DNA of 56,625 nucleotides from an uncultured Anaerolineales bacterium (GTDB lineage Bacteria > Chloroflexota > Anaerolineae > UBA7937 > B3-Chlor), in contig CAZNMJ010000001.1 of the NCBI GenBank assembly GCA_964573815.1, positions 1 through 56,625 of the forward strand, in the 5' to 3' direction. A model generated the notes under the pieces. It was not told the DNA's origin. It ran no database searches and was given only the letters and a program-made list of their open reading frames with translations. Every line of letters starts with the position of its first letter. Position 1 is the first letter of the stretch. Of this stretch, positions 1-56,625 are shown piece after piece. A program made the position numbers and the translations under genes.

Positions 1-55
1 TGCCATCCCCCCATGACCTTCTCGGCCACGAGGCTACGCAGCTCTTCGGGTGTCG
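1..55. repeat. Terminal direct repeat, left copy (identical to 56571..56625). Indicates a circular or circularly permuted genome, or an assembly overlap.
   Basis: Read directly: tgccatccccccatgaccttctcggccacgaggctacgcagctcttcgggtgtcg is present at both ends of the window. A minus-strand ORF is continuous across the junction. Confidence 0.95.
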
Positions 56-15736: not shown

Positions 15737-16210
15737 ATGAACAAACTGACTAGGCGCGAACAAGAAATAGCCAAACGTGTTCGTAGCGCCCGAGAGAGCA
15801 TGAGACCGAAGGTCACCCAAGAAGAGGTTGGTAATAAGCTTGGGCTCAGCCAGGTCGGCTACAGCCATTATGAAGCATTCCGCGTGCCCTTCACTGTCGA
15901 ACAGCTTTTCAAGCTCTCCTCTATCCTTCGTCGCTCAGTCCACCATCTGCTTGGTCTTGAAACGGGACTCACGGAGTTGGAGGAGAAACTGCTTAGCTCC
16001 TTCCAGGAGATACAAGATGTTGAGTTCCAGTTAGCCGCTATTCTCGCTGTGAGGAATCAAGTACGGATGGCTCATCGCGTGCGGGACTTGCAGGAACGCC
16101 TTGCGAGGCAAGAACAAGAAGCTGGGCCGCCGTTTTCAGTGAGGCCAGAGCCGCACAGAGCAAGCGATAGCGGGGACATCGCGCACGCCGCTGACAGAGG
16201 AAGCAAATAG
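15737..16210 (+). CDS. CI-like XRE-family repressor with a C-terminal coiled-coil region
   Basis: VTQEEVGNKLGLSQVGYSHYE HTH segment. Divergent from the Cro-like gene. First gene of the plus-strand lysogeny block. TATACT at 15714..15719. Confidence 0.75.
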   Translation: MNKLTRREQEIAKRVRSARESMRPKVTQEEVGNKLGLSQVGYSHYEAFRVPFTVEQLFKLSSILRRSVHHLLGLETGLTELEEKLLSSFQEIQDVEFQLAAILAVRNQVRMAHRVRDLQERLARQEQEAGPPFSVRPEPHRASDSGDIAHAADRGSK

Positions 16211-16590: not shown

Positions 16591-16645
16591 GCTCCTTTTC
16601 GGGTGATATGGAATGTGAAGTTTGCGCCAAATCTGGAGAAGGGAG

Positions 16646-36545: not shown

Positions 36546-37088
36546 TCACCAGCTCCGTACGACTTTGGCCCGCATCTGTTTCATGTAGTGCTCGGCCATT
36601 CTCAAACAATGCTCCGTATGCTGCGAACGGCTGAGACGTTGACCTCCCACAACCACGTCGTAGCGACTCGCTACTTGCCCAGCTCTCTCCCGCCAAAGAT
36701 CCGCCGCCCCGCCAGCCAGGTCGTAGCTCCACCCGGTCAGATACAGGGCCGAGCCCGCCTGGTCGGCGGTCATGGTGACCACGCCACGAACATAATCCAC
36801 GGTGTAGTCGGCCGTGCCTCGCTGAGATCCCCCCGCGCCTTCGATATTGAAGTAGGCGGTGCCCCCCGCCTCGTAGTCACCGTATCGCGAGTGGTAAATC
36901 CTGTACTCAGCGTCGCTGGAGGAGAGCAAAGTTCTCTCCATGTCCAGTCTCTCGCGGTACACGCGGACTTTGTGCACATCGAGCACGGCTTCTATCTGTT
37001 CGTCATCAATCCAAACGGCGTAGTCGGCGTCGCTCACCATCGAGCGAACCCGCACGATTAGGTCAGACATTCCGCTACGAGCAGCCAT
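36546..37088 (-). CDS. Head-tail connector candidate (180 aa; alternative ATG at 37070)
   Basis: First gene after the sugar island. ATG 37088 overlaps the GT gene by 14 nt. Confidence 0.45.
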   Translation of the reverse strand: MAARSGMSDLIVRVRSMVSDADYAVWIDDEQIEAVLDVHKVRVYRERLDMERTLLSSSDAEYRIYHSRYGDYEAGGTAYFNIEGAGGSQRGTADYTVDYVRGVVTMTADQAGSALYLTGWSYDLAGGAADLWRERAGQVASRYDVVVGGQRLSRSQHTEHCLRMAEHYMKQMRAKVVRSW

Positions 37089-38067
37089 TGATCACGCTCC
37101 TGTAGACGTCCTCCAGCTTCTCACCCATGTGCCGTAGGGTCATGCGCCCTTCCACTGACCGACGCGCTTCCCCGCCCAACCGTCGCCTAAGCGGCTCGTT
37201 CTCCACCAGCAGTTGCAACGCCTCTGCCAGCGCGTCCACGTCTCGTGGAGGCACAAGCAAGCCGTTGACGCCATGCTCAACCTGCGTTCTTGGCCCGCAC
37301 ACGTCCGAGGCGATACAGGCGCAGCCGCAGGACATCGCTTCCGTCAAACAGAGGCCCCACGTTTCCTGGTAGCACGACGGGAACACGGAGATGTCCGCGC
37401 GTTGCAGCTCAACCAACACTCTCTCGCGAGGCATCCCCGTGACCATATAGCCCTTGTAGCCCGTCTGACGCAACGCCGCCCTCAATATGTGCATCCCCTT
37501 GGTGGGCCACTGGGGCCAAGCGCTCAGCGTCACGATGCGACCAACTTCGCGCTTGACGGGATCGGGCACAAAGTAGTCGTGCTCCACGCCCAGGCTGATG
37601 GTGTAGTCACACCGCAATCCGTTGCGTCGGTAGATATCCGCCGTGTAAGGATTCAGCGCCATGACGGGCGAGCGATTGACGCGATCCAAGAACAGGTTGG
37701 GGGCGGGGCCCGCGTCGCAGACCCCGTCGCACTTGCCCTCGACCGCCGCGCAGGACTCGTCGTTGGTTTTGAGCAGCATCCGCCCGCCACAGAAGGGCCA
37801 ATAGTCCATGAGCGCCCAAACGTGCGGGTATCTTCGCCTTTGCAGCCAGCGCACCGGCCCGAATCCCATGAAATTATGCACGGTCATCACCTGGCACATG
37901 TCGGGCTTGAATGTCTCGACGCGCGCCGCGAACGATCCGTCGCCGTGGAACCACTCAACCTCGTGTCCCAACGCTTCAAGCGCCTTCACCTGATCGCGCA
38001 GGAACGATTCCGCGCCCCCGCCCTCTCCGTAGCCCCGCTGATCTTCGTGAATCATCAGGACGCGCAT
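37075..38067 (-). CDS. Glycosyltransferase, GT-B fold (GT1/GT4-like)
   Basis: C-terminal VFPSCYQETWGLCLTEAMSCGCACIASDVCGPRTQVEHGVNGLLV is the typical EX7E region of GT4 enzymes. ATG 38067 overlaps the upstream gene. Confidence 0.75.
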   Translation of the reverse strand: MRVLMIHEDQRGYGEGGGAESFLRDQVKALEALGHEVEWFHGDGSFAARVETFKPDMCQVMTVHNFMGFGPVRWLQRRRYPHVWALMDYWPFCGGRMLLKTNDESCAAVEGKCDGVCDAGPAPNLFLDRVNRSPVMALNPYTADIYRRNGLRCDYTISLGVEHDYFVPDPVKREVGRIVTLSAWPQWPTKGMHILRAALRQTGYKGYMVTGMPRERVLVELQRADISVFPSCYQETWGLCLTEAMSCGCACIASDVCGPRTQVEHGVNGLLVPPRDVDALAEALQLLVENEPLRRRLGGEARRSVEGRMTLRHMGEKLEDVYRSVINGCS

Positions 38068-39020
38068 AGCACCACCGGCCTGTATCGGCCTGATAGCTTC
38101 TCCATGTAGCGGACATACCAATACAGTGTGTTCCTCATGCCTTCCCACAAGTCTATCTCAGGTTTCCACCCCAAGGTGTCGATCTTGTCACAACACAACT
38201 TCTGCGCTGGTATCTCGTCAATCTTCCAGTCGCTTTCAATCACATCAGCGACATCACCTAGTCGCGCTAGTTCACGCGCCACGTCGCCAGCAGTTGCCGT
38301 AACGCCCGATCCCACGTTATATGCCTCTCCCGTCTCGCCTTTCTCAGCCAGCAGGACATAGGCTCGCACCGCGTCATCCACGTGCAACCACTCACGCTGA
38401 TAGTGCCACGCCTCAGGGTGCACCTCGGGCGGTAGACCCCTTGCAATTCGCCGACAGGAATTCGGCACCAGCCTCGACCAATGCAAGTCGCCTGGCCCAT
38501 ATAGGTTGGCGCACCGCGTCGCCATAATCCGCATGGCGCTGAACCTGGCCCAACCGCGTGCCAGGATGTCCGCAAGCGCCTTACTCAGCTCGTATGCGCT
38601 CTTGGGCCTCAGCGGCATCTCTTCGGTGTACTGCGCGCCGCCATAATCGCCGTATGCCTTGTCGCTTGACGCGACTACCACTGACTTGACCGGGCCGCAT
38701 TTACAAGCCTCCAACACGTTGAGCGTCCCCGCTACGTTGGTCATCATGGCGCGATACGGTTCCTGCGCGGCCACACGGACAATGCTCACTCCCGCGAGCT
38801 GAAACACCCACTCGATCTCCTGCGCGTTGACTATCCTCCGCAAGTATTCGATGTCCAGCGCGTTCCCATACTCCAGCCTCACCTCGACGCCGAGTGCGTC
38901 CAAGGACGTGTGTCCCTTACGATTCAACGTCGCCCCGACGACATCATGGCCCCGCGCTAGCAGCCCCTTGCACAGGTTCGCCCCGAGAAAGCCGTCAGCG
39001 CCCGTGACCAACGCTCTCAT
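38055..39020 (-). CDS. NAD-dependent sugar epimerase/dehydratase (extended SDR)
   Basis: MRALVTGADGFLGANL (GxxGxxG) and YELSKAL (YxxxK). GAGGAGG SD. Confidence 0.8.
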   Translation of the reverse strand: MRALVTGADGFLGANLCKGLLARGHDVVGATLNRKGHTSLDALGVEVRLEYGNALDIEYLRRIVNAQEIEWVFQLAGVSIVRVAAQEPYRAMMTNVAGTLNVLEACKCGPVKSVVVASSDKAYGDYGGAQYTEEMPLRPKSAYELSKALADILARGWARFSAMRIMATRCANLYGPGDLHWSRLVPNSCRRIARGLPPEVHPEAWHYQREWLHVDDAVRAYVLLAEKGETGEAYNVGSGVTATAGDVARELARLGDVADVIESDWKIDEIPAQKLCCDKIDTLGWKPEIDLWEGMRNTLYWYVRYMEKLSGRYRPVVLCAS

Positions 39021-39744
39021 ACTGTATCCTCCTCATTTTGACGGCCCAAGCCTCTGGCATAACGGTATAACATGACGAGCAACCCGTATCGCAAGGCTGT
39101 ACCCCGCGCAAAGTCATCCCATGCAGAGGTTCCGCTATCGTGCCGAGTTGCCCAACCCCTAACTGTAGGTGAACCAAGCAACGGTACACGCGGCCTGACG
39201 GATCGCAGCACAGGTGCGACGATCCCGCGCTGCAAACGCGTCGCACACCATCGAGAGCGTCTCCCTCCGCCCACGCCTGATACGGGATGCGGTTCACGCC
39301 AAATCCGAACCCGTCCGGCACTGGCGGCGAATCGGGGTGGTCTACCCAGTTCAGGTTCACCGGATAGCCCGCCTCGCGAAGCGTCTCCGCCCTCTCCACG
39401 ATATCTGGGGGCGACTCGGGCTGTATCGACACATTCAAGGCAAGACAGTTTCGCGCCTGTGCTTCCACCAGAGCCATGACAACCGGCATGTGTGCCGCAT
39501 TCGTCGTAAGACCCCACGAAAAGCCCTTCTCTACTATCGCTCCCAAAAGACTGCCGAGATGGAGGTATAGGGTTGGTTCCCCCCCGCTAATCTCCACCAC
39601 AGATCCCGGCGGCAATTGACAAATCCAGTCAGCCCATTGTTTCCAGGCCAGCACGCGCGTGTCGCTCTCTAGCCCCTGCGCGTGTACCGAGCAGTAGGGG
39701 CAGCGGAACTGACACTCCCACGTCGGATGAATAATGACTTTCAT
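38995..39744 (-). CDS. Radical SAM enzyme with a Cys-rich C-terminal (SPASM/twitch-like) region
   Basis: WECQFRCPYC (CX3CX2C). C-terminal CSAGSSHLCCDPSGRVYRC...CDTGCSSC. ATGA overlap with the upstream gene. Confidence 0.7.
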   Translation of the reverse strand: MKVIIHPTWECQFRCPYCSVHAQGLESDTRVLAWKQWADWICQLPPGSVVEISGGEPTLYLHLGSLLGAIVEKGFSWGLTTNAAHMPVVMALVEAQARNCLALNVSIQPESPPDIVERAETLREAGYPVNLNWVDHPDSPPVPDGFGFGVNRIPYQAWAEGDALDGVRRVCSAGSSHLCCDPSGRVYRCLVHLQLGVGQLGTIAEPLHGMTLRGVQPCDTGCSSCYTVMPEAWAVKMRRIQYESVGHGR

Positions 39745-40544
39745 TCCGCTCTTCCCCACGGTTCTTCGGTCTCGCCTACATAATCCCGCAACACTACATC
39801 CCCCAAACAGTGCTTAGCGTATATCTCGGGCCGACTATGCAACCCCTCCACGCCAATGCTTCGCGTGCGTGGCGCACCCATCGACCAGAAGCATCGCCCA
39901 CACCCCTCCGCTGCCCACCACAATCCACCGTCGCTAGAACAGGGCAAATCAGTACCGATTAGTGCGCCAACCTCTTCCCGATATGCCTCGTGCGGCGTGT
40001 AGGGTCGATCACCTATCACCGCACAGTACTGCCGATAGCGTGCCAACACTGGCGCGAACCATTCTCGCCGCGTTGCAAAGCAGGAACTAATCACTGGGCC
40101 TGGATACAGCCAGTTAGGGTCGCGCTCCTCCTCACTCACCGCCAAGGGACTGGCGATCAGGCCCATATCATCTGCCCCTGCAAACTGCGCCAATAAGTGC
40201 CGCATGACGCGGACGCAGTTCCTTGCCATTACCACGTCATCCTCGAGCTGAATGAAGCCCTCGTAGCGCTCACTCATCTGCTCTAGCACTGACAGCCGAT
40301 TGAGAGCGATACTGATGTTGTGGTCGTGCCTTACCACGCGCTCGAATCCGCATTCCTCGAATGCCCGCACGCTGGCGTCCAAGTCTGCCTGCTCCGCCCT
40401 CGCTTCGCCGGTTACGTGGCAGGTAGCACCGTCTTGGAATAGCCACACGTCGCAGCCCGTCAGGTCGTTCGTCATCAGCCCGTGTAGTGCCTCGCGCAAA
40501 TAGTCGGGGCGGTCGAAGCTCATAATGCCGATCCCCAGCTTCAC
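39741..40544 (-). CDS. Glycosyltransferase, GT-A fold (GT2-like)
   Basis: GIGIMSFDRPDYLREAL plus an acidic LEDD motif. GTG 40544 overlaps the upstream stop (GTGA). Confidence 0.55.
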   Translation of the reverse strand: MKLGIGIMSFDRPDYLREALHGLMTNDLTGCDVWLFQDGATCHVTGEARAEQADLDASVRAFEECGFERVVRHDHNISIALNRLSVLEQMSERYEGFIQLEDDVVMARNCVRVMRHLLAQFAGADDMGLIASPLAVSEEERDPNWLYPGPVISSCFATRREWFAPVLARYRQYCAVIGDRPYTPHEAYREEVGALIGTDLPCSSDGGLWWAAEGCGRCFWSMGAPRTRSIGVEGLHSRPEIYAKHCLGDVVLRDYVGETEEPWGRAE

Positions 40545-41389
40545 TCTACGTATGCCTCGCGCCAATGCTTTCGATACCAGGCGATGGTCTCGCGCAGCCC
40601 ATCGACCAGGTTCGTCTGTGGGTAGTACCCCACCGCTCGCAGCGCTTCACTGGCGTCGGCAATGGCCACTGCCGAGGGCGGCTCGCCCAAACGCATCGGC
40701 TCATAGCATATGAGCGATTCACTTCCGCTCAAGTCAATGATCGCCTCGGCCAGCGCCTTGACGGTCACCGGGAAGCCTGTGCCGCCATCGATGACCACGC
40801 CCCATCTCGACTGCTCCCACAAGCGCACCATGATCTCTGCCAGGTCTCGCACGTGGATCAGGTCTACGATCTGCTGTCCGTCACCGAAGAGCACCAGCGC
40901 CTTATTCTGGATGGCGTTGACGACAAACGTCGGTACGACCTTGCGCACAGCGCCCCAATGCTGCCTCGGCCCATACGCATTCAGCCCACGCACGACGCTC
41001 ACACTGCGGTGATGGTAGTCGCGGTACATCTCGCATAGCTGTGTCGAAGTATGCTTGCTAATCATGTAGGGGTTGCGCCAGGCATTCTTCAGGCTCAGGT
41101 GTACGACTGGCTTCCCCATCTGATGGGCTGCCTCTAGAATGTTGAGTGTGCCTCTGACATTGGTCTCGAAGGTGTGCCAAACGTGATCGAACGTCTCTGC
41201 GCTGCCCAGTACTCCCGCACAGTCGAACACGACTTCGCAGTCTTTGACGTACTTCTCCAGCGTTGGGTAATCTAGCACGTCAAGCCCGTTCCGCAGGTCG
41301 TAGCACATGATCCTGGTGTATGCACGCTCTCGCAACAGGTCGCAGAGATGCGAGCCAACGAACCCAGATCCGCCCGTTACCAAGATCAT
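40541..41389 (-). CDS. NAD-dependent sugar epimerase/reductase (extended SDR)
   Basis: MILVTGGSGFVGSHL and YMISKHT (YxxxK). ATGA overlap. Confidence 0.8.
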   Translation of the reverse strand: MILVTGGSGFVGSHLCDLLRERAYTRIMCYDLRNGLDVLDYPTLEKYVKDCEVVFDCAGVLGSAETFDHVWHTFETNVRGTLNILEAAHQMGKPVVHLSLKNAWRNPYMISKHTSTQLCEMYRDYHHRSVSVVRGLNAYGPRQHWGAVRKVVPTFVVNAIQNKALVLFGDGQQIVDLIHVRDLAEIMVRLWEQSRWGVVIDGGTGFPVTVKALAEAIIDLSGSESLICYEPMRLGEPPSAVAIADASEALRAVGYYPQTNLVDGLRETIAWYRKHWREAYVE

Positions 41390-42033
41390 TCCGTCGCTCC
41401 CGCATCATCCAGTCGATCTATCATGTAAAGGTCGCAGAGGTGGTTCGCCTTGATTGGCCCCCTTACGTCGCCATAGCCCGCAAACAACGCCCTGATCTCC
41501 TCAGGGTCAAAGTCCCAGTGGTGCTCACTTCGGTGTTCCGCCAGCGACAAGACGCCGCACCTGGGAACCGTCACGACGATGCGTTTACGTGCCAATGCGA
41601 CAGCGACCTCCGCCAGTTCCCGCGGCTCCAGCTCATGCTCTAGCAGCTCCAAGAGGTATACCGTATCCCATTGTCCTGCCTGTGAGCCTTCGCGCCAATC
41701 TCGGCATTCTAGCTCCGCTTGCGCAGCCTTCGGAATAATGGCCGTGTCAATCGCGCTCTGCGCGTAGTCCCAGCCCGTGTAGTGCACGTTAGGGAAAGCC
41801 TCAAACAGCGACAACCCTAGCCCGCCTTGGCCGCAGCCTATATCCAACGCAGTGTTGCCAACCTGACGGGCCGCCGCCGCTCGGTAGCGGTTGACATTGC
41901 TCGCATTTCGTGTTGGGTATTCCCCGCGTTCATAGAGACCGCGCCAATACTGCTCCGAGTTCACAGTGCTCTCTGCTATGAGTGGCATTACGGACCTGCC
42001 CTCAGCAATCTCATGCCGCCGCCAATGCTTCAT
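41386..42033 (-). CDS. Class I SAM-dependent methyltransferase
   Basis: Motif I ALDIGCGQGGLG. Alternative ATG at 41988. Confidence 0.7.
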   Translation of the reverse strand: MKHWRRHEIAEGRSVMPLIAESTVNSEQYWRGLYERGEYPTRNASNVNRYRAAAARQVGNTALDIGCGQGGLGLSLFEAFPNVHYTGWDYAQSAIDTAIIPKAAQAELECRDWREGSQAGQWDTVYLLELLEHELEPRELAEVAVALARKRIVVTVPRCGVLSLAEHRSEHHWDFDPEEIRALFAGYGDVRGPIKANHLCDLYMIDRLDDAGATE

Positions 42034-42043
42034 CAGTCAAAAG

Positions 42044-42610
42044 CTAAAGTAGTTTCCCTACCCATGCCATTCTTCGGTGATGGCTTCGACAATCCATTGG
42101 CCGCAATGTGTCGGGATCAAGTTCGAACTTCAGAATCGCCAATAACTTTTCTACATCTATTTTCATTCTGTCCCAGCGAATCCATTCGGAGTCTTCTGGT
42201 CCTTGTCCCGAAAATTGCAAAAGATGATTGCCAAAGTGCCTTACCCACACCCTACACCGATTCATTTTGGAGTAAACTCTACATGGGCCTGTTCCATATT
42301 GATACCTTAACTCCTTGGTGGGTGTTTGTCGCCGATTCCTTATTAGTTGGTTCTCAATGAGTATGGTATCGTGTTGGCTTTCTGTAAGATCAGCCCCGTT
42401 GGTTTTGATTTCGATGTTCATCATAAACTGGAAAGCACGGCCTTTCTCGGTGTGAAACTTATGCCAACGCAGATCGTGGTCATTGGCCGTATATCCTACT
42501 TTACTGCGCAGTTCGGGATGATTGCGCACCCAACGCCCAAAGGCCGTTTCTATCGTTACTTCTTTGCCACAGTGTGGACATTCCATACGCTCGTTATATG
42601 CGCGCGTCAT
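42044..42610 (-). CDS. Zn-ribbon plus PD-(D/E)XK-like nuclease candidate (188 aa)
   Basis: CPHCGKE at the N-terminus. HD...(19 aa)...IEIK resembles a D-(D/E)xK motif. Clearly AT-richer than its surroundings. The start overlaps the methyltransferase 3' end by 17 nt. Confidence 0.35.
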   Translation of the reverse strand: MTRAYNERMECPHCGKEVTIETAFGRWVRNHPELRSKVGYTANDHDLRWHKFHTEKGRAFQFMMNIEIKTNGADLTESQHDTILIENQLIRNRRQTPTKELRYQYGTGPCRVYSKMNRCRVWVRHFGNHLLQFSGQGPEDSEWIRWDRMKIDVEKLLAILKFELDPDTLRPMDCRSHHRRMAWVGKLL

Positions 42611-43793
42611 TCACTCGACTCCGAGCGAGGGCCGCGGTTTCGGGATCTGTCTCAAATCCCCAATAGTTGCGATTCAGGCGCTTTGCTGCTATCAAAGTAG
42701 TACCGGAGCCGCAAAAAGGATCGAGCACCAAACCACCTCGCGGGCATAATGAAGCAATAAAATGAGCCGCTTCTGCTTCTGCCTGCTGCCATTCGTGCGA
42801 TTCCTTTTCCTTTCCTCCACTGGTCATATCTGAGAACCAGTTCCACCAAGCTGTAAGTGGTGGTTTGTAGTATGCAAGAACGGGTTTCCATGCATTGTGA
42901 AGATGGTATTTTCTGAATCGAAGCTCACCACCCGTGTGACGGATGGCGAACGTCCACATGTAATCGAGGTGGGAATAGAGAGCGGCATAGATCTCTGGGA
43001 GCGAATGCTGGCCGCTGTAGGCGAGACATATACTGCCTGGTTTCAAGACCCTGGAAGCGAAAAGCGACAATGCCTCATAGAGTTCCAGAGAATCGTCGCT
43101 ATAAGGAGGGTCCGTTAGGATCAGATCAACCGAATCATTCTCTAGCACATCGCCGACTTCCCGGAAATCGCCCTCAACGATGGAAGAGTCCACTGGCGCA
43201 TTCTCGATCATCTCCTGACGTTTCCGAGCCGCCTCTTGCCGCTTTCGCTCCTGATTCGCCACGCGACTGACATGCGCTTGACTGATCTTGAACTCGGCGG
43301 CGATTTCTTCCTGCGTCTTTTCGCCCGCCTCAGCCATCTCAAAGAGGGCCTCTTTCCCCTCCGGCCTCAGTTTCTGGCGAGAATCGGTTGGTCTATACCT
43401 AATACCAACTTTGGTATTAGGTATAGAAAGCCAATAGCCCACAGTTTGTTGCGCCACTCCCAGCAGTTTGCCGATCTCGGTCTGCGTCTTGCCTTCCGCG
43501 TTCAGTTCCAGAGCCACTTCTTTCATCTGCTTACGAAGCGCCGATTTTTGTTCAGGACTAAGATTCCGACGCACGAAGTTAGCTCGATAGGCGAACGCCT
43601 TCTTCTCGGCCTGGGTCAGGCCAGTGATAACGCGCCGTGGGCAATCCGGCTGAATCTTGGCGCGATGGTGCCCGTCTAATATCGCGCCGTCCTCGTCAAC
43701 CCATATCGGGTCTCGGACACCATTGAGATCAATATCCGCCTTCAGGGCCGCAAACTCATCCGTAGAGAGCTCGGGCAAAAGCTCGAAGATCAT
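42594..43793 (-). CDS. ParB-like nuclease domain / HTH / N6-adenine DNA methyltransferase fusion
   Basis: N-terminal GVRDPIWVDEDGAILDGHHR (ParB-N). HTH EIGKLLGVAQQTVGYW. Motif IV LILTDPPY. Motif I VLDPFCGSGTTLIAA. ATG 43793 overlaps the upstream TGA. Confidence 0.8.
   Translation of the reverse strand: MIFELLPELSTDEFAALKADIDLNGVRDPIWVDEDGAILDGHHRAKIQPDCPRRVITGLTQAEKKAFAYRANFVRRNLSPEQKSALRKQMKEVALELNAEGKTQTEIGKLLGVAQQTVGYWLSIPNTKVGIRYRPTDSRQKLRPEGKEALFEMAEAGEKTQEEIAAEFKISQAHVSRVANQERKRQEAARKRQEMIENAPVDSSIVEGDFREVGDVLENDSVDLILTDPPYSDDSLELYEALSLFASRVLKPGSICLAYSGQHSLPEIYAALYSHLDYMWTFAIRHTGGELRFRKYHLHNAWKPVLAYYKPPLTAWWNWFSDMTSGGKEKESHEWQQAEAEAAHFIASLCPRGGLVLDPFCGSGTTLIAAKRLNRNYWGFETDPETAALARSRVNDARI
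43392..43427. repeat. Perfect 36-bp palindrome: 17-bp arms TCTATACCTAATACCAA / TTGGTATTAGGTATAGA around a central CT
   Basis: Read directly. AT-rich. Lies in frame (12 codons, LSIPNTKVGIRY) inside the ParB-methyltransferase gene, just after its HTH. Confidence 0.9.
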
Positions 43794-45046
43794 CACGGAC
43801 CCGCCCTCAGCAATCTCGCCCGCCAGAGGCGTATCTGCTTCTTCGATAGCCACGGCGTGGGGGCATAGATTTGATGCATCTGGGGCCCTACCTTGGGCTG
43901 CTCGGCCAGCCAGCCTTCCTCGCTCGCCAGTCGCCAAAGCTCAGTGCCCGGCTCCGTCGTGCATATCGTCACCTGACACCATTGCACCAATTCCTGCGCA
44001 ACGACCTTCCTGAACCGTTTCTCGGTGTAGGCCAGATCCCGTGGAGTCTCTTTGTAGCTGCCCACCATGAGAAACACCCAGTTCCCGATGCCTGCATCAT
44101 GAGCGAGACGGAGTGAGTGCCAGATATCCTCTTCTGTAGTGCCCTTCTTGATGTCCGCCAACACCTTGTCCGAGAAGGACTCAACACCCCACATGATGGC
44201 CCGACAGCCCGCCTTGCGCATCGTGACCAGCGTTTGCTTATCGTTCCTTACGGAGCAACGCCCCTGGCACTTCCAGGTCAATCCCAACGGCGCGATCTCG
44301 GCGCAGACGCCGCGCAGCCAACCGTTGTGCTTCTCGCCCACGCCCACCAATTCATCGTCGTAAATGAAGACTGAGCGGATGCCCAAGGACTTCAAGTCGG
44401 CCATGTCGGCTTTGATTCTGTCCGCTGGACGCATCCTGATGCGCTGATGTGTGAAGATGGGATTCCCACAGAAGATGCAATCGTGGGGACACCCCCGCGA
44501 CCACATGCTGATACCTTCCGGGTGCCCTATCTTCGGTTGGTTGCCCGCATAGGCGCGTGGCGCGGGCGAATGAGTCCTCCACAATGGGCCCGGGATGTCC
44601 TCGATGGGCATAGGCTTTCCCCGCACCACGTCGCGCCGCCGCTCCCCGAAAATCTCCGCGATGTTGCCCTCGCACTCGCCAACCACTGCCACGTCCGCGC
44701 CCCAATCGAGCTTGGGCTCGGGATCGAGAGTAACATCCGGCCCGCCGACGGCGATATAGCCCTCGTAGCGAGCCTTGTATAACGCTTCGATGCACTCCCG
44801 CGCGCCTCTGCGGTTATGGGACGTGACGGTGAATCCCACGACTTCGGGCTGTGAGGCTGGAGCATCTGCGAACATCGCCCCAAGCCGCCTAGGCGACACC
44901 CCCATTGCCTCCAGGTCCCACACCCGGACCTGATGCCCCGCGTTCTGCAGCACGGCAGCGATGATCGGAAGACCTAGCGCCGGATTCAAGCGATAATGCA
45001 CCTTCGCGTAATGGTGGATGGGCGGATTGAACAAATGGATTTTCAT
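43793..45046 (-). CDS. B12-binding radical SAM enzyme (class B, methylase-like)
   Basis: N-terminal Rossmann-like MKIHLFNPP...LGLPIIAAVLQNAGHQVRVWD. SRGCPHDCIFCGNP (CX3CX2C). Confidence 0.7.
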   Translation of the reverse strand: MKIHLFNPPIHHYAKVHYRLNPALGLPIIAAVLQNAGHQVRVWDLEAMGVSPRRLGAMFADAPASQPEVVGFTVTSHNRRGARECIEALYKARYEGYIAVGGPDVTLDPEPKLDWGADVAVVGECEGNIAEIFGERRRDVVRGKPMPIEDIPGPLWRTHSPAPRAYAGNQPKIGHPEGISMWSRGCPHDCIFCGNPIFTHQRIRMRPADRIKADMADLKSLGIRSVFIYDDELVGVGEKHNGWLRGVCAEIAPLGLTWKCQGRCSVRNDKQTLVTMRKAGCRAIMWGVESFSDKVLADIKKGTTEEDIWHSLRLAHDAGIGNWVFLMVGSYKETPRDLAYTEKRFRKVVAQELVQWCQVTICTTEPGTELWRLASEEGWLAEQPKVGPQMHQIYAPTPWLSKKQIRLWRARLLRAGP

Positions 45047-45843
45047 CACTCGCTCATTCTGCAAGTATTCACATGTAGGCGGTCTGCCGGAATGTGGGAT
45101 TGACACAAGTCCAAGAGACGTTGCGGGGAATAACCCATCTGAGCCAGCCTGGAGCTGGTGTGGAACTCTCCGACCAGATAGTCTACTTTGCTCAGCAACT
45201 CACCCGCAGACTCAAGTATCTCGTATTCGGCACCCTCGCAGTCTATCTTGAGCAATTTGCACCGATCTATCTCCAGGTTGGTGAAGATCTGCTTCAAGGT
45301 CACCGACTTGACTTTGCGGGCCCTGCCATTGCCTCCAGCATAAGCTGATACTCCACCGCTGTTCTGGCTCATATTCCCACGCAACCGCAGAGGACGCCCG
45401 TTCCCGCTCACGGCCAACCGAAAGGCCTTGACGTTGGTAACGGCGTTGACCTTGACATTCCTCTCCAGGTTGGCGAAATTCTCCCGCACCGGCTCGAAAG
45501 CGTAAATTCGCGTCCCTGGCCAACACTTTGCCAGATAGATCGACACGATACCTACGTGCGCGCCAATGTCGAGGATCACATCTCCGTCCTGGGCGGTGAA
45601 CCCGTCCAGTTTGTAGGAATCAACCACTTCGCGCATGATGATTTTCGCCACTCCGCCACAGGCATCATCCTCGATGTCCAAGGTATGAGCACCGACCCGT
45701 GAGGAGTAGATTCCGTCTATGACTCTTGCTCGACACAGGGCCGCCTCACAATCCGGGCGTCTACAGGGAAGGTGCAACTGGCCGTCTATGTACAAGCCGG
45801 TGGAGGCCCAATCATGACCTAGCACTTCACAGTTGGGGTTCAT
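45046..45843 (-). CDS. FkbM-family methyltransferase
   Basis: ILDIGAHVGIVSIY...IYAFEP...LLKIDCEGAEYEILE (expected PF05050). Confidence 0.7.
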   Translation of the reverse strand: MNPNCEVLGHDWASTGLYIDGQLHLPCRRPDCEAALCRARVIDGIYSSRVGAHTLDIEDDACGGVAKIIMREVVDSYKLDGFTAQDGDVILDIGAHVGIVSIYLAKCWPGTRIYAFEPVRENFANLERNVKVNAVTNVKAFRLAVSGNGRPLRLRGNMSQNSGGVSAYAGGNGRARKVKSVTLKQIFTNLEIDRCKLLKIDCEGAEYEILESAGELLSKVDYLVGEFHTSSRLAQMGYSPQRLLDLCQSHIPADRLHVNTCRMSE

Positions 45844-47032
45844 CAGCCTCCCCCCAAGCGTCTTCCAAGCTCACCGCTTCAAGCTCACCGCCCTCTTCGA
45901 TCTCAGCTTCGATTGCCTCTAGCACTGGCTTCCAGTACTTCTCGGTCACAAGGTCGGCATCATAGTGCAGTGCCCCCTCACGCGCCTTCTCGCGCAACCG
46001 CCGGCTGCCCTTGGCGTTGTAGGCCTTCTCTAGCGCGGACAGTATCGAGTTGATGAACGGGACGTACTGCCACGCAGCCATGTTGGGATTCCAGAAGGGT
46101 TGCCCACGAACCTTCCAGCCCGCGAAGCAGAGCTCGGGCATACTGGTCCAGCTACCCACGATGACGGGTGTGCCGCAAGCTTGCGCTTCTAGAATAGGCA
46201 AACCGAATCCCTCGCCCATCGATGGATTCACCAGGACATCCGCGGCGTTGTACAAATCCACCATGTAATGGTCGTCGTAGCCCAACCCCACTGTATTGCG
46301 GAACGGGTCTGCGAAGGCTACTTGCTGACCGGGGATCCCCAACTTCTCGATCAGCACCTTCAGATCAGCACCGGCCATTTCACCGCCGAAGTGCGTGTGC
46401 ATGTACAGCACCGCCTCATCGTGCCGATCAGTGAACTTCTTCCAGGCTGCCAGCACCTCCCCGAAAGACTTGCGGCTGGGCCAACCCTTGTTGGCTGCCA
46501 CCATCACGGCCAGGAAACCGTCCCCAGGGAGGCCAAACTTCTTCCGTGCTTCTGCCTTGTCCCGCGGCTTGTACACATCGGTCTCGATACCGTGCGGGAC
46601 ATAGACGGGATCGAGTCCGGCTTCCTGGACCTCTTTGTATCCAAAGCGGCTGTAAGTGATGGGCTGCCAAGCAGTCGAAATCGCCTGCCTTACCGGCTCC
46701 GCCAATGGTTTGTGATCGATGGGGGCCCAAGGGCACCAACGAAACTGGCTGGTTACCTGGTTCATGAACGGCCAAGCATCGTAAAGCGTGATCACTATGT
46801 CCGCCTTGGTGTGCTTGGCATAGTCTACCAACACGTCGTTGCCGTGCCGATCAATGCCCAGCGGATAGATCCGAGAATGCTCGCCCAACTCCAGCGGGCT
46901 TCCGCCCAAGCCGTAGCTGGCCCCCAAGACCACCTCGTGCCCAAGTGCAACGATACGCGGCACGAAGATGCGTGTCTGCGTACCGTAGCCCGTTCGCGCC
47001 CAGGGCGCGTTGCTCCACCAAAAGATTCTCAC
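45827..47032 (-). CDS. Glycosyltransferase, GT-B fold (GT1/GT4-like)
   Basis: VLVNPSMGEGFGLPILEAQACGTPVIV motif. The GTG start overlaps the upstream stop (GTGA). Confidence 0.7.
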   Translation of the reverse strand: MRIFWWSNAPWARTGYGTQTRIFVPRIVALGHEVVLGASYGLGGSPLELGEHSRIYPLGIDRHGNDVLVDYAKHTKADIVITLYDAWPFMNQVTSQFRWCPWAPIDHKPLAEPVRQAISTAWQPITYSRFGYKEVQEAGLDPVYVPHGIETDVYKPRDKAEARKKFGLPGDGFLAVMVAANKGWPSRKSFGEVLAAWKKFTDRHDEAVLYMHTHFGGEMAGADLKVLIEKLGIPGQQVAFADPFRNTVGLGYDDHYMVDLYNAADVLVNPSMGEGFGLPILEAQACGTPVIVGSWTSMPELCFAGWKVRGQPFWNPNMAAWQYVPFINSILSALEKAYNAKGSRRLREKAREGALHYDADLVTEKYWKPVLEAIEAEIEEGGELEAVSLEDAWGEADEPQL

Positions 47033-47220
47033 TTGGCTTCCTCCTTGCCCTCAAGAGCGGCCCGAAGGAAGTTCCACAGATTCGTGTAGTCTATCTTCGC
47101 ACCGACCTCTTTGACGCCCCCTTGCAGCTTGGCGGCCAAGCAACGCAACGCCTCAAAGTTGCGCTCGTCGAGACGCACTATCACTTGGCGCGTTTCTGGT
47201 GTGTAACCCAAGTATTCCAT
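47029..47220 (-). CDS. Hypothetical protein (63 aa), first gene of the sugar island
   Basis: ORF with GGAGGATAAAGG upstream. Confidence 0.5.
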   Translation of the reverse strand: MEYLGYTPETRQVIVRLDERNFEALRCLAAKLQGGVKEVGAKIDYTNLWNFLRAALEGKEEAK

Positions 47221-47325: not shown

Positions 47326-47739
47326 CTACGCTCCCACCCCGGACACGTAAGTGAAACTCACGGTCCAGGTCAACCCCGCCACGGTCCCGGACTCGTCGTA
47401 CTTGAGTACCAGGTAGTCGCCCGCATCCAGAGTGCCTTCCGAGATCGTAAAGTTCTGAGGAGTCGCCACCTCCCATGCGGGGAAAGTGCCGCCCGCATCA
47501 GTGCCGCCCATAGGCGAACCCACGGTGCCTGTGCCCGTCGCGTCAGAGCCCCCGTCCAACAGGGTGACCTCGACGCCGTTGACAGTGCCAGCCGCCAACG
47601 CGGTGTTGGTGCTGATCCACGCCTCAAGAATCTCTACCTTGGTGAGTTCCGCAGGAACCCGCCACATCGGGAAGGATTCGTCCTCGGTGGGGTCAGAGAA
47701 CGTGAAGGTTACCGAATACTGAACGTCTCTTCCGAACAT
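47326..47739 (-). CDS. Capsid-associated (decoration-like) protein candidate (137 aa)
   Basis: Immediately follows the major capsid gene. Beta-rich with Gly/Thr-rich loops. Confidence 0.4.
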   Translation of the reverse strand: MFGRDVQYSVTFTFSDPTEDESFPMWRVPAELTKVEILEAWISTNTALAAGTVNGVEVTLLDGGSDATGTGTVGSPMGGTDAGGTFPAWEVATPQNFTISEGTLDAGDYLVLKYDESGTVAGLTWTVSFTYVSGVGA

Positions 47740-47752
47740 TTCTCTATACCCC

Positions 47753-48604
47753 CTAGCTCACCGTCTGTGCGTCATGGACGATGTAGACGCCCCACTTGGG
47801 CCGCCATACGCCATGCGCGTACATCATGGTCAGGTTCAGTTCCCACGCTCGCTTGCTGGCGTCGCGCTCCGGCTCAAGCCGAATGTCGCGCCGCAAGTCG
47901 TAGGCGATGGCCATCGGGTTGAAGATGGCGCTGTAGCCATCATTCCCGGACTCCTCGCAGTTGCCACTGATGAAGATGTCCACGCCCGCCGCCGTGCCCA
48001 CGTACCAGCGCCGCATCACGTCGTTCTGGAACTCCGGGGCGTTGGTCACCGTCGCCGCCACGGCCGCTGCTTCGGCCATATAGTGCCAGCAGTACGGGTG
48101 CAACACGGCGTACCAGGGCCGGGGAACCTTATTCTTGCGCATGATGCTGATGGCCGCGTAGAAGTATCCCCAAGTCATGGTCGAGCCGCTCGCCCCCACG
48201 CTTCCGCCGGTCAGCGAGTCGAAGTTTCCCAGGATGTCCTGATCCACGAGATCGGCCATGCCCGCGCCCATCTCGATGGCCGCGTCCTGCCGAGCGTTCT
48301 GAGGATCCGTCTCCATGCGCCTATCGGTCAAGATCACCTGACTCATCTTCTCCGCAGGGGTCAGAGTCGCCAGGAGCGTCTTGTCCATGCGCGTCGGGGC
48401 GGCGAAGTCCTCGGTCTCCTCGACGGCCGCCGGCGTGATGGTCGGGTATTCGGTGAGAGAACGGGTCTGGTCGCCACGCCCGTCAGTGTAGGTACGCACC
48501 AGGCGAGTGGCGATCGTGCCCTCGTGGAGGGCGAACACCGCGTCCTCATAGATGTTGTTGAAGTAGCTGTTGAGATCAGCTACCCGAGAGTAGCCTACGG
48601 TCAT
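47753..48604 (-). CDS. Major capsid protein (HK97-fold expected)
   Basis: 283 aa, directly after the scaffold gene. Its composition and position are typical. Confidence 0.7.
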   Translation of the reverse strand: MTVGYSRVADLNSYFNNIYEDAVFALHEGTIATRLVRTYTDGRGDQTRSLTEYPTITPAAVEETEDFAAPTRMDKTLLATLTPAEKMSQVILTDRRMETDPQNARQDAAIEMGAGMADLVDQDILGNFDSLTGGSVGASGSTMTWGYFYAAISIMRKNKVPRPWYAVLHPYCWHYMAEAAAVAATVTNAPEFQNDVMRRWYVGTAAGVDIFISGNCEESGNDGYSAIFNPMAIAYDLRRDIRLEPERDASKRAWELNLTMMYAHGVWRPKWGVYIVHDAQTVS

Positions 48605-48612
48605 GTCTCACC

Positions 48613-49320
48613 TCATTTGAGTTCGGGCATGAACACGCCTCCCCCGTGCTTGCCGAAGAGTGTCTCGCCCGTGCCGTACAATCGCGCCCGCTTCTGTGCG
48701 TCCGTTTCGCCCGTTTGAGCTCCACGTCCGAGGTTGGTCGGGCTGAATGTCGGCGTGCCGCGCAACAGGTGCGGCTTGGCCTCCCCCAGCTTCTTCAAAG
48801 CATCCTCTAGCCCCTCCACCTTGCCCTCATCGTTCAGGGTCAGTTCGGAGAGATCGAGAAGCTTGTACGCATCGTCCGGATCGATAAACTCTTGCCGCGT
48901 CGCCTCGGCCACCACCGCCATGCGGAGCAGCGTATCCACGCGCTGCTGCTCCAGAACAGCTTTGTCCGCCTGCAAGGCGGCCAACTGCTCTCCGAGTTTG
49001 TCCTTCTCGGCCTGCTGTTCCTGCTGCAAGGTCTCGATGCGCTCGGAGAGCTTTTCCATCTCGCTCTTCTCGGCGTCCTCGAGTTCTTGCAGCTTGGCGG
49101 CCTTGGCTTTGAGCTCGTCGTAGTCGGCGAAGCCCTCTAGCTGCCCCGCTTTCTCTTTGAGCTCATCGTAGTCGGCGAACTTCTGCTCGACGCGAGCGAT
49201 CCGCTCCCGGACGATACGATTCAGTTCGTCCTGGGTGAAGACCTTCCCGGGATCCTGGCCACCCGTTTGATCCTGGTCGGTGCCAGTGCCAGTCACATCC
49301 GTGCCTTCCTGCGTTGCCAT
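48613..49320 (-). CDS. Capsid scaffolding protein
   Basis: FTQDELNRIVRERIARVEQKF followed by a long acidic coiled coil (GP20/DUF4355-type pattern). Confidence 0.7.
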   Translation of the reverse strand: MATQEGTDVTGTGTDQDQTGGQDPGKVFTQDELNRIVRERIARVEQKFADYDELKEKAGQLEGFADYDELKAKAAKLQELEDAEKSEMEKLSERIETLQQEQQAEKDKLGEQLAALQADKAVLEQQRVDTLLRMAVVAEATRQEFIDPDDAYKLLDLSELTLNDEGKVEGLEDALKKLGEAKPHLLRGTPTFSPTNLGRGAQTGETDAQKRARLYGTGETLFGKHGGGVFMPELK

Positions 49321-56303: not shown

Positions 56304-56625
56304 TCCACCTCCACGCCCAGCGCGCGTAGCGCGGCGAGGGAGATATGGCGTGGCGCACTCTTCCCTTTGCCGAAACCATACCGACCATCTTCTACATGGT
56401 AGAAATTCACATCATCCCCACCCGGCCCATAAATGAAAGTCATGGTGAAGCCCAGGTCGGCCATCCTCTCGATCACCCGTCCCGCGTCGGCCCAGGATTC
56501 GAGTGGGTTCCAGGCCTCCGCCACAATACATCCATCATTGTCGAACCAAAGTTCAGTTATTTTGCCCTTATGCCATCCCCCCATGACCTTCTCGGCCACG
56601 AGGCTACGCAGCTCTTCGGGTGTCG
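56300..56625 (-). CDS. Phage ABA-sandwich-domain-like protein. Its 5' end lies across the circular junction (true ATG = position 59 of the left copy), about 109 aa.
   Basis: ELRSLVAEKVMGGW...WNPLESWADAGRVIERMADLG...ISLAALRALGVEV fits the pattern of that family as I recall it (expected PF18066). The reading frame stays open to the window edge. Confidence 0.6.
   Translation of the reverse strand, partial: TPEELRSLVAEKVMGGWHKGKITELWFDNDGCIVAEAWNPLESWADAGRVIERMADLGFTMTFIYGPGGDDVNFYHVEDGRYGFGKGKSAPRHISLAALRALGVEVE
56571..56625. repeat. Terminal direct repeat, right copy (identical to 1..55)
   Basis: Read directly. Confidence 0.95.

Follow-up and report, generated by a model that had tools for sequence, protein, structure and literature searches.

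A conserved glycosyltransferase and B12-domain radical SAM gene pair among the head genes of uncultured temperate phages, with a probable role in virion glycosylation

Introduction

Glycosylation of phage virions was, to our knowledge, first shown in 2023, and in mycobacteriophages only. The subject of this article is a module of twelve genes (positions 37075-47220, minus strand) in a 56,625-nucleotide stretch of DNA, hereafter the window, deposited as contig CAZNMJ010000001.1 of an uncultured Anaerolineales bacterium (NCBI GenBank assembly GCA_964573815.1, positions 1 to 56,625 of the forward strand). The chief novelty of the module is a gene pair, a GT4-type glycosyltransferase (GTB1) and a radical S-adenosylmethionine (SAM) enzyme with a B12-binding domain (B12-rSAM), which forms a conserved, capsid-linked core in a large lineage of uncultured phages. 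Two further glycosyltransferases, the GT4 enzyme GTB2 and the predicted GT-A-fold enzyme p267, are encoded in the same module.

Work on mycobacteriophages (Freeman et al. 2023, as summarised in later papers) describes glycosylation of capsid and tail-tube proteins by phage glycosyltransferases (PMC11600133, PMC12363180), assigns it to gp108-110 of Che8 and gp34-38 of Corndog, and also lists Myrna (PMC11600133, PMC11256854, PMC12363180). This is functionally the system closest to the module, which nevertheless falls outside its enzyme families. Both occur in siphoviruses, both combine phage-encoded glycosyltransferases with one or more methyltransferases, and the proposed outcome is the same, namely cytoplasmic O-glycans on capsid or tail proteins; glycosylation is experimentally established in the mycobacteriophages, whereas in the module it is proposed from the genes. 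The Corndog glycosyltransferase genes lie among those for head morphogenesis, upstream of protease and capsid, and the module likewise lies among head genes, its FkbM-family and class I methyltransferases being encoded between the major capsid protein (MCP) and the head-tail connector. In Che8, by contrast, the glycosyltransferase genes occupy the extreme right of the genome, away from the capsid gene. Mycobacteriophage sets include neither a radical SAM enzyme nor a short-chain dehydrogenase/reductase (SDR), whereas the module includes both.

Comparison of GTB1, GTB2, p267 and the GT34-like proteins of related loci with Che8 gp109 and gp110 and Corndog gp37 and gp38 by BLASTP (E<=0.01) and hhalign yielded no match. 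No sequence or profile similarity links the glycosyltransferases and methyltransferases of the module to Che8 gp108-110 or Corndog gp34-38, and a tblastn search of 50,697 phage records with GTB1 returned no Mycobacterium phage. An earlier, sequence-only reading of this DNA had cited mycobacteriophages as a precedent for glycosyltransferase genes beside capsid genes; the precedent holds for Corndog, fails for Che8, and does not extend to relatedness of the enzymes.

For the radical SAM enzyme, the closest characterized system is AprD4 (PDB 6fd2), the radical SAM 1,2-diol dehydratase of apramycin synthesis, which has the same two-domain architecture as B12-rSAM and a similar length. AprD4 acts on the sugar ring of paromamine, a pseudodisaccharide in which the sugar is already attached to its aglycone. 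The class B enzymes TsrM, MgmA/QCMT, OxsB and TokK also resemble B12-rSAM, in that a Rossmann-like, B12-type domain precedes a radical SAM TIM barrel. We know of no AprD4-like or class B enzyme that has been described in the context of virion modification. According to a 2026 review, class B methylases bind cobalamin, while AprD4 has a Rossmann-like domain yet binds none (PMC12931638); on sequence grounds the cobalamin dependence of B12-rSAM is therefore uncertain.

Giant viruses such as chloroviruses and mimiviruses carry out autonomous, virus-encoded glycosylation of their capsids, and we know of no radical SAM enzymes reported in the glycosylation pathways of giant or archaeal viruses. Coat proteins are also glycosylated in archaeal viruses with cytosolic assembly, which encode glycosyltransferases of their own, including A197 of STIV and the set of SFV1, in which five glycosyltransferases and a GDP-mannose 4,6-dehydratase accompany glycosylated virion proteins (PMC4187194, PMC6105669). 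Archaeal and giant viruses resemble the module in pairing viral glycosyltransferases with sugar-nucleotide tailoring enzymes and cytoplasmic assembly, and differ from it in belonging to other realms and hosts. The operon-embedded pair of a glycosyltransferase and a radical SAM enzyme is specific to the lineage described here.

Organization of the module

The twelve genes lie between the genes for MCP and a small jelly-roll protein (p137) on one side and the head-tail connector genes on the other, both in the open reading frame (ORF) layout and in independent gene calls made on an identical public sequence (a 56,600-bp Logan contig, run SRR10836660). Of the 13 junctions from the first small ORF of the module (p63) through the connector gene, 11 are overlaps of 1-26 nt; the two exceptions are gaps, of 105 nt before p63 and of 55 nt after the p188 gene. 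Promoter-like and terminator-like sites are fewer within the module than in shuffled sequence, so that a search for internal promoters, terminators or attenuators gave nothing above chance, and the intergenic sequence that separates p137 from p63 shows no unusual degree of structure (z = +1.3). The sequence-only reading had described twelve co-oriented, mostly coupled genes inside a late structural operon, and both parts of that description stand.

The gene content is that of a sugar-tailoring and glycosyl-transfer set, as had been claimed: the family assignments bear this out, with Pfam matches for two GT-B enzymes, two extended SDRs, B12-rSAM, an FkbM methyltransferase and a class I methyltransferase. 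The catalytic motifs examined are intact, EX7E being present in both GT4 enzymes, CX3CX2C in both radical SAM enzymes, and GxxGxxG and YxxxK in both SDRs. The earlier coordinates of the three glycosyltransferase genes (45827-47032, 39741-40544 and 37075-38067) are correct to the base. No nucleotidyltransferase is encoded in the module, as had been noted, so the host must supply nucleoside diphosphate (NDP) sugars. Membrane segments were found in none of the module proteins, and no flippase, polymerase or polyprenyl-phosphate transferase is among the module genes.

The core enzymes

GTB1 (45827-47032) is assigned to GT4 by Glycos_transf_1 (4.8e-12, 46.2 bits; gathering score 26.4) and Glyco_trans_1_4 (3.1e-12, 47.4 bits; gathering score 27), matches phrog_2170 over its full length (5.6e-41), and carries its EX7E motif as EGFGLPILE at residue 274. 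GTB2 (37075-38067), the last gene of the module and nearly as conserved as the core, also scores as GT4 (Glycos_transf_1 7.4e-25, 87.9 bits, cut-off 26.4; PF13692 73.6 bits, cut-off 27), with the motif ETWGLCLTE at residue 235. Profile classification of the glycosyltransferases, which had been suggested with the sequence-only reading, thus places GTB1 and GTB2 in GT4 above gathering scores. The best NCBIfam scores of the two are to MshA, BshA and MGlcDAG synthase. GTB2 matches the glycosyltransferase portion of PHROG 21308, and rSAM249, the small radical SAM enzyme of the module, matches the radical SAM portion, which suggests that natural fusions of the two enzyme types exist in phages.

B12-rSAM (43793-45046, 417 aa) matches Radical_SAM (PF04055, 1.7e-17, 64.6 bits) and B12-binding (PF02310, 8.5e-13, 48.6 bits), both above cut-offs, and its CX3CX2C motif at residue 186 is invariant in 16 homologues. 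The N-terminal position of the B12-binding domain together with the radical SAM cluster motif corresponds to the class B architecture. The AlphaFold2 (AF2) model is of high confidence (pLDDT 92.9), and its best fold match is AprD4 (TMq 0.75-0.78), followed by TsrM, MgmA (TMq 0.65), OxsB, CysS and TokK. AprD4 is also the best sequence match in the PDB (1e-13), at an identity of only about 19%. All NCBIfam equivalog cut-offs, among them those of HpnJ, HpnR, the AprD4 family, BchE and PhpK, lie far above the scores of B12-rSAM, the best of which are to HpnJ (96.9 bits against 577.6) and the AprD4 family (61.6 against 500); the matches below cut-off include the methyl-coenzyme M reductase (MCR) glutamine C-methyltransferase and C-methyltransferases of ribosomally synthesized and post-translationally modified peptides (RiPPs). 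By these sequence scores the GT4 enzymes, the SDRs, the FkbM protein and B12-rSAM fall inside known superfamilies and in none of their named equivalogs.

In some relatives (L062-L065, for example L064) the B12-rSAM gene is split by about 1.1 kb. One B12-rSAM homologue of 564 aa (P0098) contains Hint/intein-type Pfam domains, which suggests an intein inside the enzyme in some relatives.

Conservation in uncultured relatives

The sequence-only reading had spoken of an island embedded in the structural operon. It is not peculiar to this one phage; it is an old module shared across a lineage, and the window contains one of its richest elaborations. A megablast search of the 50,697 phage records with the island found no nucleotide match. 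At the protein level, MCP identified 15 IMG/VR loci (64-83% identity), and every one with enough downstream sequence encodes a p137 homologue, GTB1 and then, where the sequence reaches that far, B12-rSAM. The latter has 167 metagenomic homologues (E<=1e-5), with 43-63% identity among the 120 listed, none of which is informatively annotated.

The window proteins were mapped onto 69 loci, which reduce to 41 non-redundant loci; counts out of 25 refer to loci with enough downstream sequence. GTB1 is directly upstream of B12-rSAM in 35/38 loci. A survey of relatives for the island and its insertion point, which had been proposed earlier, located an MCP homologue upstream of the pair in 24 of 30 loci and the connector gene p180 immediately downstream of the module in 19 of 25. 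GTB2 is present in 21/25 loci and the small radical SAM enzyme in 19/25, and an SDR in only 7/25. The distance from capsid to connector genes ranges from 3.6 to 12.1 kb, and the roughly 10.7 kb of the window is near the top of this range without being the largest. Minimal modules consist of a GT4 enzyme, B12-rSAM and a second GT4 enzyme (L021, L055), or end instead in a protein of about 210 aa that reaches Glyco_transf_34. This GT34-like GT-A protein is found where GTB2 is absent, in six loci of three lineages (L049/L052/L068, L042, L048, L051). The core is therefore GT4 plus B12-rSAM, usually with a second glycosyltransferase, and the SDRs, methyltransferases, GT-A enzyme and small radical SAM enzyme are variable accessories. 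Surveyed over the 41 non-redundant loci, the arrangement is conserved far beyond chance and is not a one-off insertion.

Identity to the window of both GTB1 and B12-rSAM tracks that of MCP (Spearman 0.70 and 0.76, n=25), a correlation that is descriptive and not a test, because all identities are measured against the window as single reference. The two enzymes are still 40-47% identical where MCP has fallen to about 33%, which indicates long co-inheritance with the capsid gene under strong constraint. Two distant MCP relatives, phage DSL-LC06 and Pelagibacter phage HTVC026P, lack p137 and have no glycosyltransferase between the capsid and tail genes. In the more distant locus L076, B12-rSAM is 37% identical and is flanked by GT2, GT4 and SDR genes, the upstream transferase being the GT2. 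The cellular context of two other distant B12-rSAM relatives (L077, L079) was uninformative.

Three related loci (L013, L014 and L015; for example L015, 739-1500) have a capsid gene broken by 763 bp directly after the conserved stretch ...GASGSTFSWG. The insert contains a 175-aa HNH-type endonuclease-like ORF in another frame and matches no Rfam intron family above threshold; an intron that encodes a homing endonuclease is a possible explanation.

The capsid-side and connector-side boundaries

MCP (47753-48604, 283 aa; Phage_capsid_4, 1e-6), the upstream boundary of the module, shares 45% identity with the protein annotated as MCP in Microcystis phage Mae-JY09. Between MCP and the module lies p137 (47326-47739, 137 aa), for which the AF2 model (pLDDT 91.5) is an all-beta, eight-stranded jelly-roll. 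Its Foldseek matches are jelly-roll domains of viral coats and protrusions, among them chain H of the capsid asymmetric unit of cyanophage Pam1 (TM 0.51), and unnamed phage and viral proteins of equal size (TM 0.66-0.76). The protein is conserved between MCP and GTB1 in 14/30 loci and is absent from several lineages that carry the module. Because of its gene position and jelly-roll fold, p137 is reasonably viewed as a probable capsid decoration or cement protein, and it is a candidate acceptor. The downstream boundary is p180 (36546-37088), the first gene on the connector side, which overlaps GTB2 by 14 nt and is followed by Phage_HCP-like and Tail_completion_gp17 (6e-7) genes.

The capsid proteins of all module-bearing lineages have in common an LTGGTVGAxGsT stretch at about residues 130-143 of MCP; two relatives without the module differ there and have a one-residue deletion. 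A similar Gly/Thr-rich loop, GTAGTAxxGTVxxxLGGT, is found at about residues 64-85 of p137. The stretch and the loop may be a structural coincidence or an acceptor site.

Homologues in cultured phages

Among the module enzymes tested, GTB1 alone has clear homologues in cultured phages by sequence comparison, B12-rSAM and GTB2 having distant or partial matches only. In Microcystis phage Mae-JY09 the GTB1 homologue (45%) directly follows MCP and a p137 homologue, and in Pontimonas phage phiPsal1 (37%) it follows MCP together with a methyltransferase and a GT2 gene. The homologue of Synechococcus phage S-CBS4 (28%) is encoded between portal and protease/MCP genes with a GT-A enzyme and a methyltransferase; that of Tetrasphaera phage TJE1 (26%) is found upstream of the terminase, in the company of nucleotidyltransferase, epimerase and methyltransferase genes. 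Homology to rudivirus glycosyltransferases is weak (23-28% identity over about 60% of the GTB1 length). The Mae-JY09, phiPsal1 and S-CBS4 proteins share with GTB1 the family phrog_2170 and the same kind of head-module site, in different head gene sets, and unlike the module these phages have no B12-rSAM, small radical SAM enzyme, GTB2 or SDRs.

The only B12-rSAM relative in cultured phages, that of Streptomyces phage SF3 (24%), has an unrelated context of nucleotide metabolism, its neighbours being thymidylate kinase and NUDIX genes. For GTB2 the matches are partial, covering 23-34% of its length, and come from three faecal phage contigs that carry no annotation, and rSAM249 has no homologue in cultured phages. 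A literature search found no functional study of clusters of the Mae-JY09, phiPsal1, S-CBS4 or TJE1 type, and no paper linking radical SAM enzymes to phage capsid glycosylation.

A proposed glycosylation pathway

A sugar gene set in a late operon without a nucleotidyltransferase or membrane segments, and the lack of a pyrimidine hydroxymethylase among the 20 largest ORFs beyond that operon, together favour a cytoplasmic target such as virion proteins. The reading preferred here, with a probability of roughly 55%, is late-expressed cytoplasmic glycosylation of virion proteins with radical SAM tailoring of the sugar. A more specific form, to be held tentatively and at somewhat less than even odds, is that B12-rSAM C-methylates or deoxygenates the sugar of a capsid glycan after its transfer to the virion protein, throughout a widespread lineage of uncultured temperate siphoviruses. 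From the gene content and motifs, the operon position and coupling of the genes, their conservation and co-inheritance with the capsid gene, and the solubility of all components, we infer the donor, the acceptor, the sequence of reactions and the chemistry of the radical SAM enzymes as follows.

GTB1, as a retaining GT4 enzyme, would take the initial sugar from an NDP-sugar of the host and attach it to a structural protein of the same operon, most likely MCP, the adjacent p137, or both. The translationally coupled B12-rSAM would then modify the attached sugar in place, either by class B-type C-methylation or by an AprD4-like diol dehydration/deoxygenation. GTB2 would extend the glycan, and in some lineages where GTB2 is absent the GT34-like GT-A protein is present. 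In the window, the accessory enzymes (the 4,6-dehydratase-like SDR, the second SDR, rSAM249, the FkbM and class I methyltransferases, and p267) would diversify the donor sugars and the glycan, and the product would be a 6-deoxy and/or methylated oligosaccharide. The ParB-like DNA methyltransferase and p188 would be an unrelated cassette that landed in a plastic region.

Several observations count for this pathway. The largely overlapping genes lie between the head and connector genes with no excess of promoters or terminators, the arrangement is conserved and co-inherited with the capsid gene, p137 and the module are both missing from the distant MCP relatives DSL-LC06 and HTVC026P, the machinery is cytoplasmic, a ThyA/ThyX-type hydroxymethylase and a DNA polymerase were not found among the ORFs tested, and mycobacteriophages and archaeal viruses provide precedents. 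The genes around B12-rSAM in L076 and the fusions suggested by PHROG 21308 place radical SAM enzymes in a glycan context. The sugar-acting AprD4 is the best neighbour of B12-rSAM in both fold and sequence, which speaks for sugar tailoring, and the GTB1 homologues of cultured phages at the same kind of head-module site speak for a virion target.

Several points weigh on the other side. The acceptor, whether capsid, decoration or tail protein, is itself inferred; the MCP alignment was searched for a Ser/Thr-rich C-terminal tail (as in mycobacteriophages) and for a module-specific insertion, and contains neither, and p137 is missing from several lineages that keep the module. Cobalamin use by B12-rSAM is uncertain from its sequence. 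The best-scoring GT4 relatives act on small molecules or lipids, and none of the module glycosyltransferases is detectably related in sequence to the mycobacteriophage enzymes of proven function. In four independent arrangements (the window, L008/L043, L047 and L054) the island also contains DNA methyltransferase genes, at a position that differs from one arrangement to the next; such genes seem to insert preferentially in this region. Six loci have no detectable MCP homologue upstream of the cassette, three of them (L018, L064 and L069) on contigs of 107, 109 and 52.8 kb, and the L018 cassette adjoins ThyX and dCMP deaminase genes.

The L018 cassette, on a 107-kb phage-like contig (5973-7661 and 13819-16166), has the order glycosyltransferase, B12-rSAM, radical SAM enzyme, glycosyltransferase with no recognisable capsid gene near. 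A Ro60/TROVE-vWA gene lies on one side of it, and the ThyX and dCMP deaminase genes lie on the other.

Alternative functions

An alternative acceptor for the radical SAM chemistry is a residue of a capsid or decoration protein, which B12-rSAM would C-methylate or change in some other way, the glycosyltransferases glycosylating the same protein independently. MCR glutamine and arginine methylases and RiPP methylases C-methylate protein or peptide residues, and B12-rSAM resembles such enzymes both in its fold match to MgmA, an MCR glutamine methylase, and in its NCBIfam matches to MCR glutamine and RiPP C-methyltransferases. The minimal modules without sugar-nucleotide enzymes would suit a protein target, as would an LTGGTVGAxGsT stretch that is kept in module-bearing capsid proteins and differs in the two relatives without the module. 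However, glycosyltransferases flank B12-rSAM in essentially every locus, even in L076 with its GT2 upstream, and a glycan substrate fits this better than a protein; AprD4, the best match in sequence and fold, acts on a sugar, and no leader-like or RiPP-recognition element was found, p63 being unconserved. Modification of a protein residue is thus unlikely, although it survives best among the alternatives. A related candidate, sactipeptide-like cross-linking of the capsid by a SPASM-type enzyme, was set aside as unlikely because the MCP cysteines are not conserved.

Modification of a host-envelope glycan, as lysogenic conversion or as late masking of receptors against superinfection and loss of progeny on debris, is rather improbable. 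The phage is temperate, having a serine recombinase and a helix-turn-helix (HTH) regulator, phage glycosyltransferases are classically tied to serotype conversion (reviewed in PMC12619734), and GT4 relatives act on lipid-linked or membrane acceptors. Yet the module lies about 16 kb from the recombinase, in a translationally coupled late operon and with no detectable promoter of its own, and it lacks a membrane protein, a flippase and a polyprenyl-phosphate transferase; the membrane components of a seroconverting cassette and its position beside an integrase or att site are both absent. Host-specific serotype genes would also not be expected to stay with the capsid gene across lineages in which MCP identity falls to about 33%.

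Hypermodification of phage DNA is very unlikely. Under this explanation the glycosyltransferases would glycosylate a base, which the radical SAM enzymes would prepare or tailor, as an anti-restriction measure. DNA-hypermodifying viral glycosyltransferases are a precedent (Pyle et al. 2024, cited in PMC12619734), and the recurrent DNA methyltransferases of the island, the ThyX and dCMP deaminase genes beside the L018 cassette, and the thymidylate kinase and NUDIX genes beside the SF3 relative all point in this direction. Against it, the 20 largest ORFs that this complete genome has outside its structural operon include no Pfam match to a ThyA/ThyX-type hydroxymethylase, a DNA polymerase or a nucleotide kinase, which agrees with the earlier statement that no base hydroxymethylase is present. 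The glycosyltransferases are moreover of GT4 rather than T4-type DNA glucosyltransferases, the capsid-side position is kept in 24/30 loci, and the methyltransferase and p188 of the window are compositionally foreign, as fits an opportunistic insertion.

Weakest of all is a soluble or lipid-anchored glycoside (aminoglycoside-like, or of inositol/malate type) that acts on the host or on competitors and decorates no macromolecule: MshA/BshA-type GT4 enzymes, an AprD4-like and a BtrN-sized, twitch-like radical SAM enzyme, SDR reductases and methyltransferases make up a mix that we take to resemble aminoglycoside and pseudo-oligosaccharide pathways, but genes for a cyclitol synthase, an aminotransferase, an exporter and resistance are all absent, the minimal module comprises just two glycosyltransferases and a radical SAM enzyme, and such a product offers no rationale for the conserved place among head morphogenesis genes.

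Accessory genes

The first gene of the module is p63 (47029-47220), a small ORF with a good upstream Shine-Dalgarno sequence (AGGAGG), whose protein sequence begins VIVRLDERNFEALRCLAAKL... and is possibly that of a ribbon-helix-helix-like DNA-binding protein. No family match was found in the libraries searched, and related loci have no tblastn counterpart; a RiPP-like precursor or a conserved regulator was rejected because relatives lack it. Its role may be that of a local regulator, or the gene may be an independent moron.

Both accessory methyltransferases have family matches. The FkbM-family SAM methyltransferase (45046-45843) matches PF05050 (6.3e-20, 72 bits) and TIGR01444 above cut-off (7.8e-31, 107 bits), and is found in some relatives only. 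The class I SAM methyltransferase (41386-41988, 200 aa) matches Methyltransf_12 (1.4e-9, 39 bits) and Methyltransf_23 (3.3e-8).

The two extended SDRs are SDR282 (40541-41389; Epimerase, 7e-39, 134.1 bits), of the NDP-sugar epimerase/reductase type, and SDR321 (38055-39020; Epimerase PF01370, 1.9e-49, 168.7 bits). SDR282 has GxxGxxG and YxxxK and is below all NCBIfam equivalog cut-offs. SDR321, with the motifs SSDKAY and YELSK, is nearest to NDP-hexose 4,6-dehydratases (TIGR01181, 1.6e-45; TIGR02622, 1.7e-32), both scores being below the equivalog cut-offs. Neither SDR reaches the specific equivalogs RmlB, CDP-glucose 4,6-dehydratase or GalE.

The GT-A enzyme claimed at 39741-40544, p267, is itself without a direct match in Pfam, NCBIfam or the PDB; the assignment is probable from its EDD motif at residue 101 and from a homologue in L025 that reaches Glycos_transf_2 (2.3e-5, 24.8 bits; cut-off 23.3). 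An hhalign comparison with the family of S-CBS4 gp15 and the phiPsal1 GT2 gave a weak match (probability 44%, E 2e-4).

The small radical SAM enzyme rSAM249 (38995-39744), a frequent accessory, matches Radical_SAM (5.8e-9, 37 bits) and carries CX3CX2C at residue 11. It had been read as SPASM/twitch-like: the radical SAM assignment holds, and the Cys-rich C-terminus (C171-x12-G-x4-C189 and C218-x3-C-x2-C225) fits a twitch/SPASM-like auxiliary cluster, with no Pfam SPASM match. In some lineages where tblastn finds no rSAM249 homologue there is a radical SAM/SPASM enzyme of 340 aa; in L042, one such lineage, a 339-aa radical SAM protein matches SPASM at 4.2e-7.

The N-terminal core of rSAM249 weakly matches prokaryotic viperins (PADLOC pVip, 4.3e-10; NCBIfam viperin, 1.3e-7, far below cut-off) and also NrdG-type activases. 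Viperins dehydrate a nucleotide sugar ring; the matches are probably generic core similarity.

The DNA methyltransferase and p188

The remaining two genes of the module are a ParB-like/HTH/N6_N4 DNA methyltransferase (42594-43793; N6_N4_Mtase, 3.5e-18; DPPY motif; PADLOC MTase_II, 1.5e-20), with PHROG matches to DNA methyltransferase and ParB, and p188 (42044-42610), a 188-aa ORF that overlaps it and has the lowest GC of the region. GC and third-position GC (GC3) are 0.53 and 0.57 for the methyltransferase and 0.46 and 0.47 for p188, against 0.55-0.63 and 0.66-0.80 for their neighbours. These low values mark the two as a compositionally foreign insert and not as sugar-pathway genes, and the pair looks like a recently acquired cassette. 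Of the methyltransferase/nuclease pair described earlier, the methyltransferase was upheld, as a DNA methyltransferase. The nuclease was not: p188 has no match in Pfam, NCBIfam, PHROGs, PADLOC or the PDB, so that none of the five libraries supports it.

The phage genome

The first and last 55 bases of the window (1-55 and 56571-56625) are an exact direct repeat, the usual signature of a circularly closed assembly, and the window is thus a complete phage genome of about 56.57 kb. The contig is also recorded, at 56,625 bp, in a metagenomic protein collection, and the phage is known from metagenome assemblies only. It is a complete temperate phage of siphovirus type (56.6 kb), its temperate lifestyle being indicated by genes for a large serine recombinase (19529-21010) and an HTH regulator (15737-16210). 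On the minus strand the genes run from small and large terminase, SPP1-type portal and Mu-F-like protein to scaffold (48613-49320; Phage_scaffold, 3.5e-14), MCP and the 137-aa protein; after the module follow the connector, head-completion and tail-completion genes, from 36546 down, and then the tail genes. The tail region encodes a tape-measure-like minor tail protein and tail proteins with carbohydrate-binding and lectin-like domains. A second DNA methyltransferase is encoded elsewhere in the genome, outside the module.

Searches of the window for tRNA genes and Rfam families found none, and neither a cobalamin riboswitch nor an intron RNA reached an Rfam gathering score in the window or in L015. 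An MCP profile found no prophage in GTDB genomes; the B12-rSAM profile matched only short contigs of metagenome-assembled genomes of mixed taxonomy (Anaerolineae, Polaromonas, Lysobacterales, Phycisphaerae).

Two large tail-region proteins, at 24499-25932 and 27111-31502 on the minus strand, carry the carbohydrate-binding domains Laminin_G_3 and CBM_4_9, a hint of a glycan as host receptor. Beside the lysogeny genes, at 16622-17629 on the plus strand, the genome encodes a protein whose Ig-like domain matches N_BRCA1_IG (2.4e-25).

Biological significance

We know of no earlier description of a conserved pair of glycosyltransferase and radical SAM genes in a late phage operon, and the pair would be new even if its target were DNA or the host envelope. 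If the virion is the target, phage capsid glycosylation would be phylogenetically broad, since the module is found in aquatic, soil and wastewater-type metagenomes and GTB1 homologues in cyanobacterial and actinobacterial phages; it would be of ancient origin, given its co-inheritance with the capsid gene; and the recruitment of radical SAM enzymes would give it a richer chemistry than is known so far. Radical SAM enzymes of these types normally belong to antibiotic, cofactor and RiPP pathways. The step catalyzed by B12-rSAM would be the first radical SAM reaction, possibly a cobalamin-dependent one, dedicated to post-translational modification of a virus particle, and it would open a new functional niche for the large and mostly uncharacterised family of B12-domain radical SAM enzymes.

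The compact three-gene systems of glycosyltransferase, radical SAM enzyme and glycosyltransferase would be of use for enzymology and for glyco-engineering of phage particles. In the host cell, virion maturation and the production of progeny would be tied to the supply of cobalamin (B12) and of iron-sulfur clusters. What the module most likely makes, to judge from its genes, is an unusual sugar coat on the virus particle, built by a glycosyltransferase and a B12-type radical SAM enzyme, and this would be a new role for that enzyme class.

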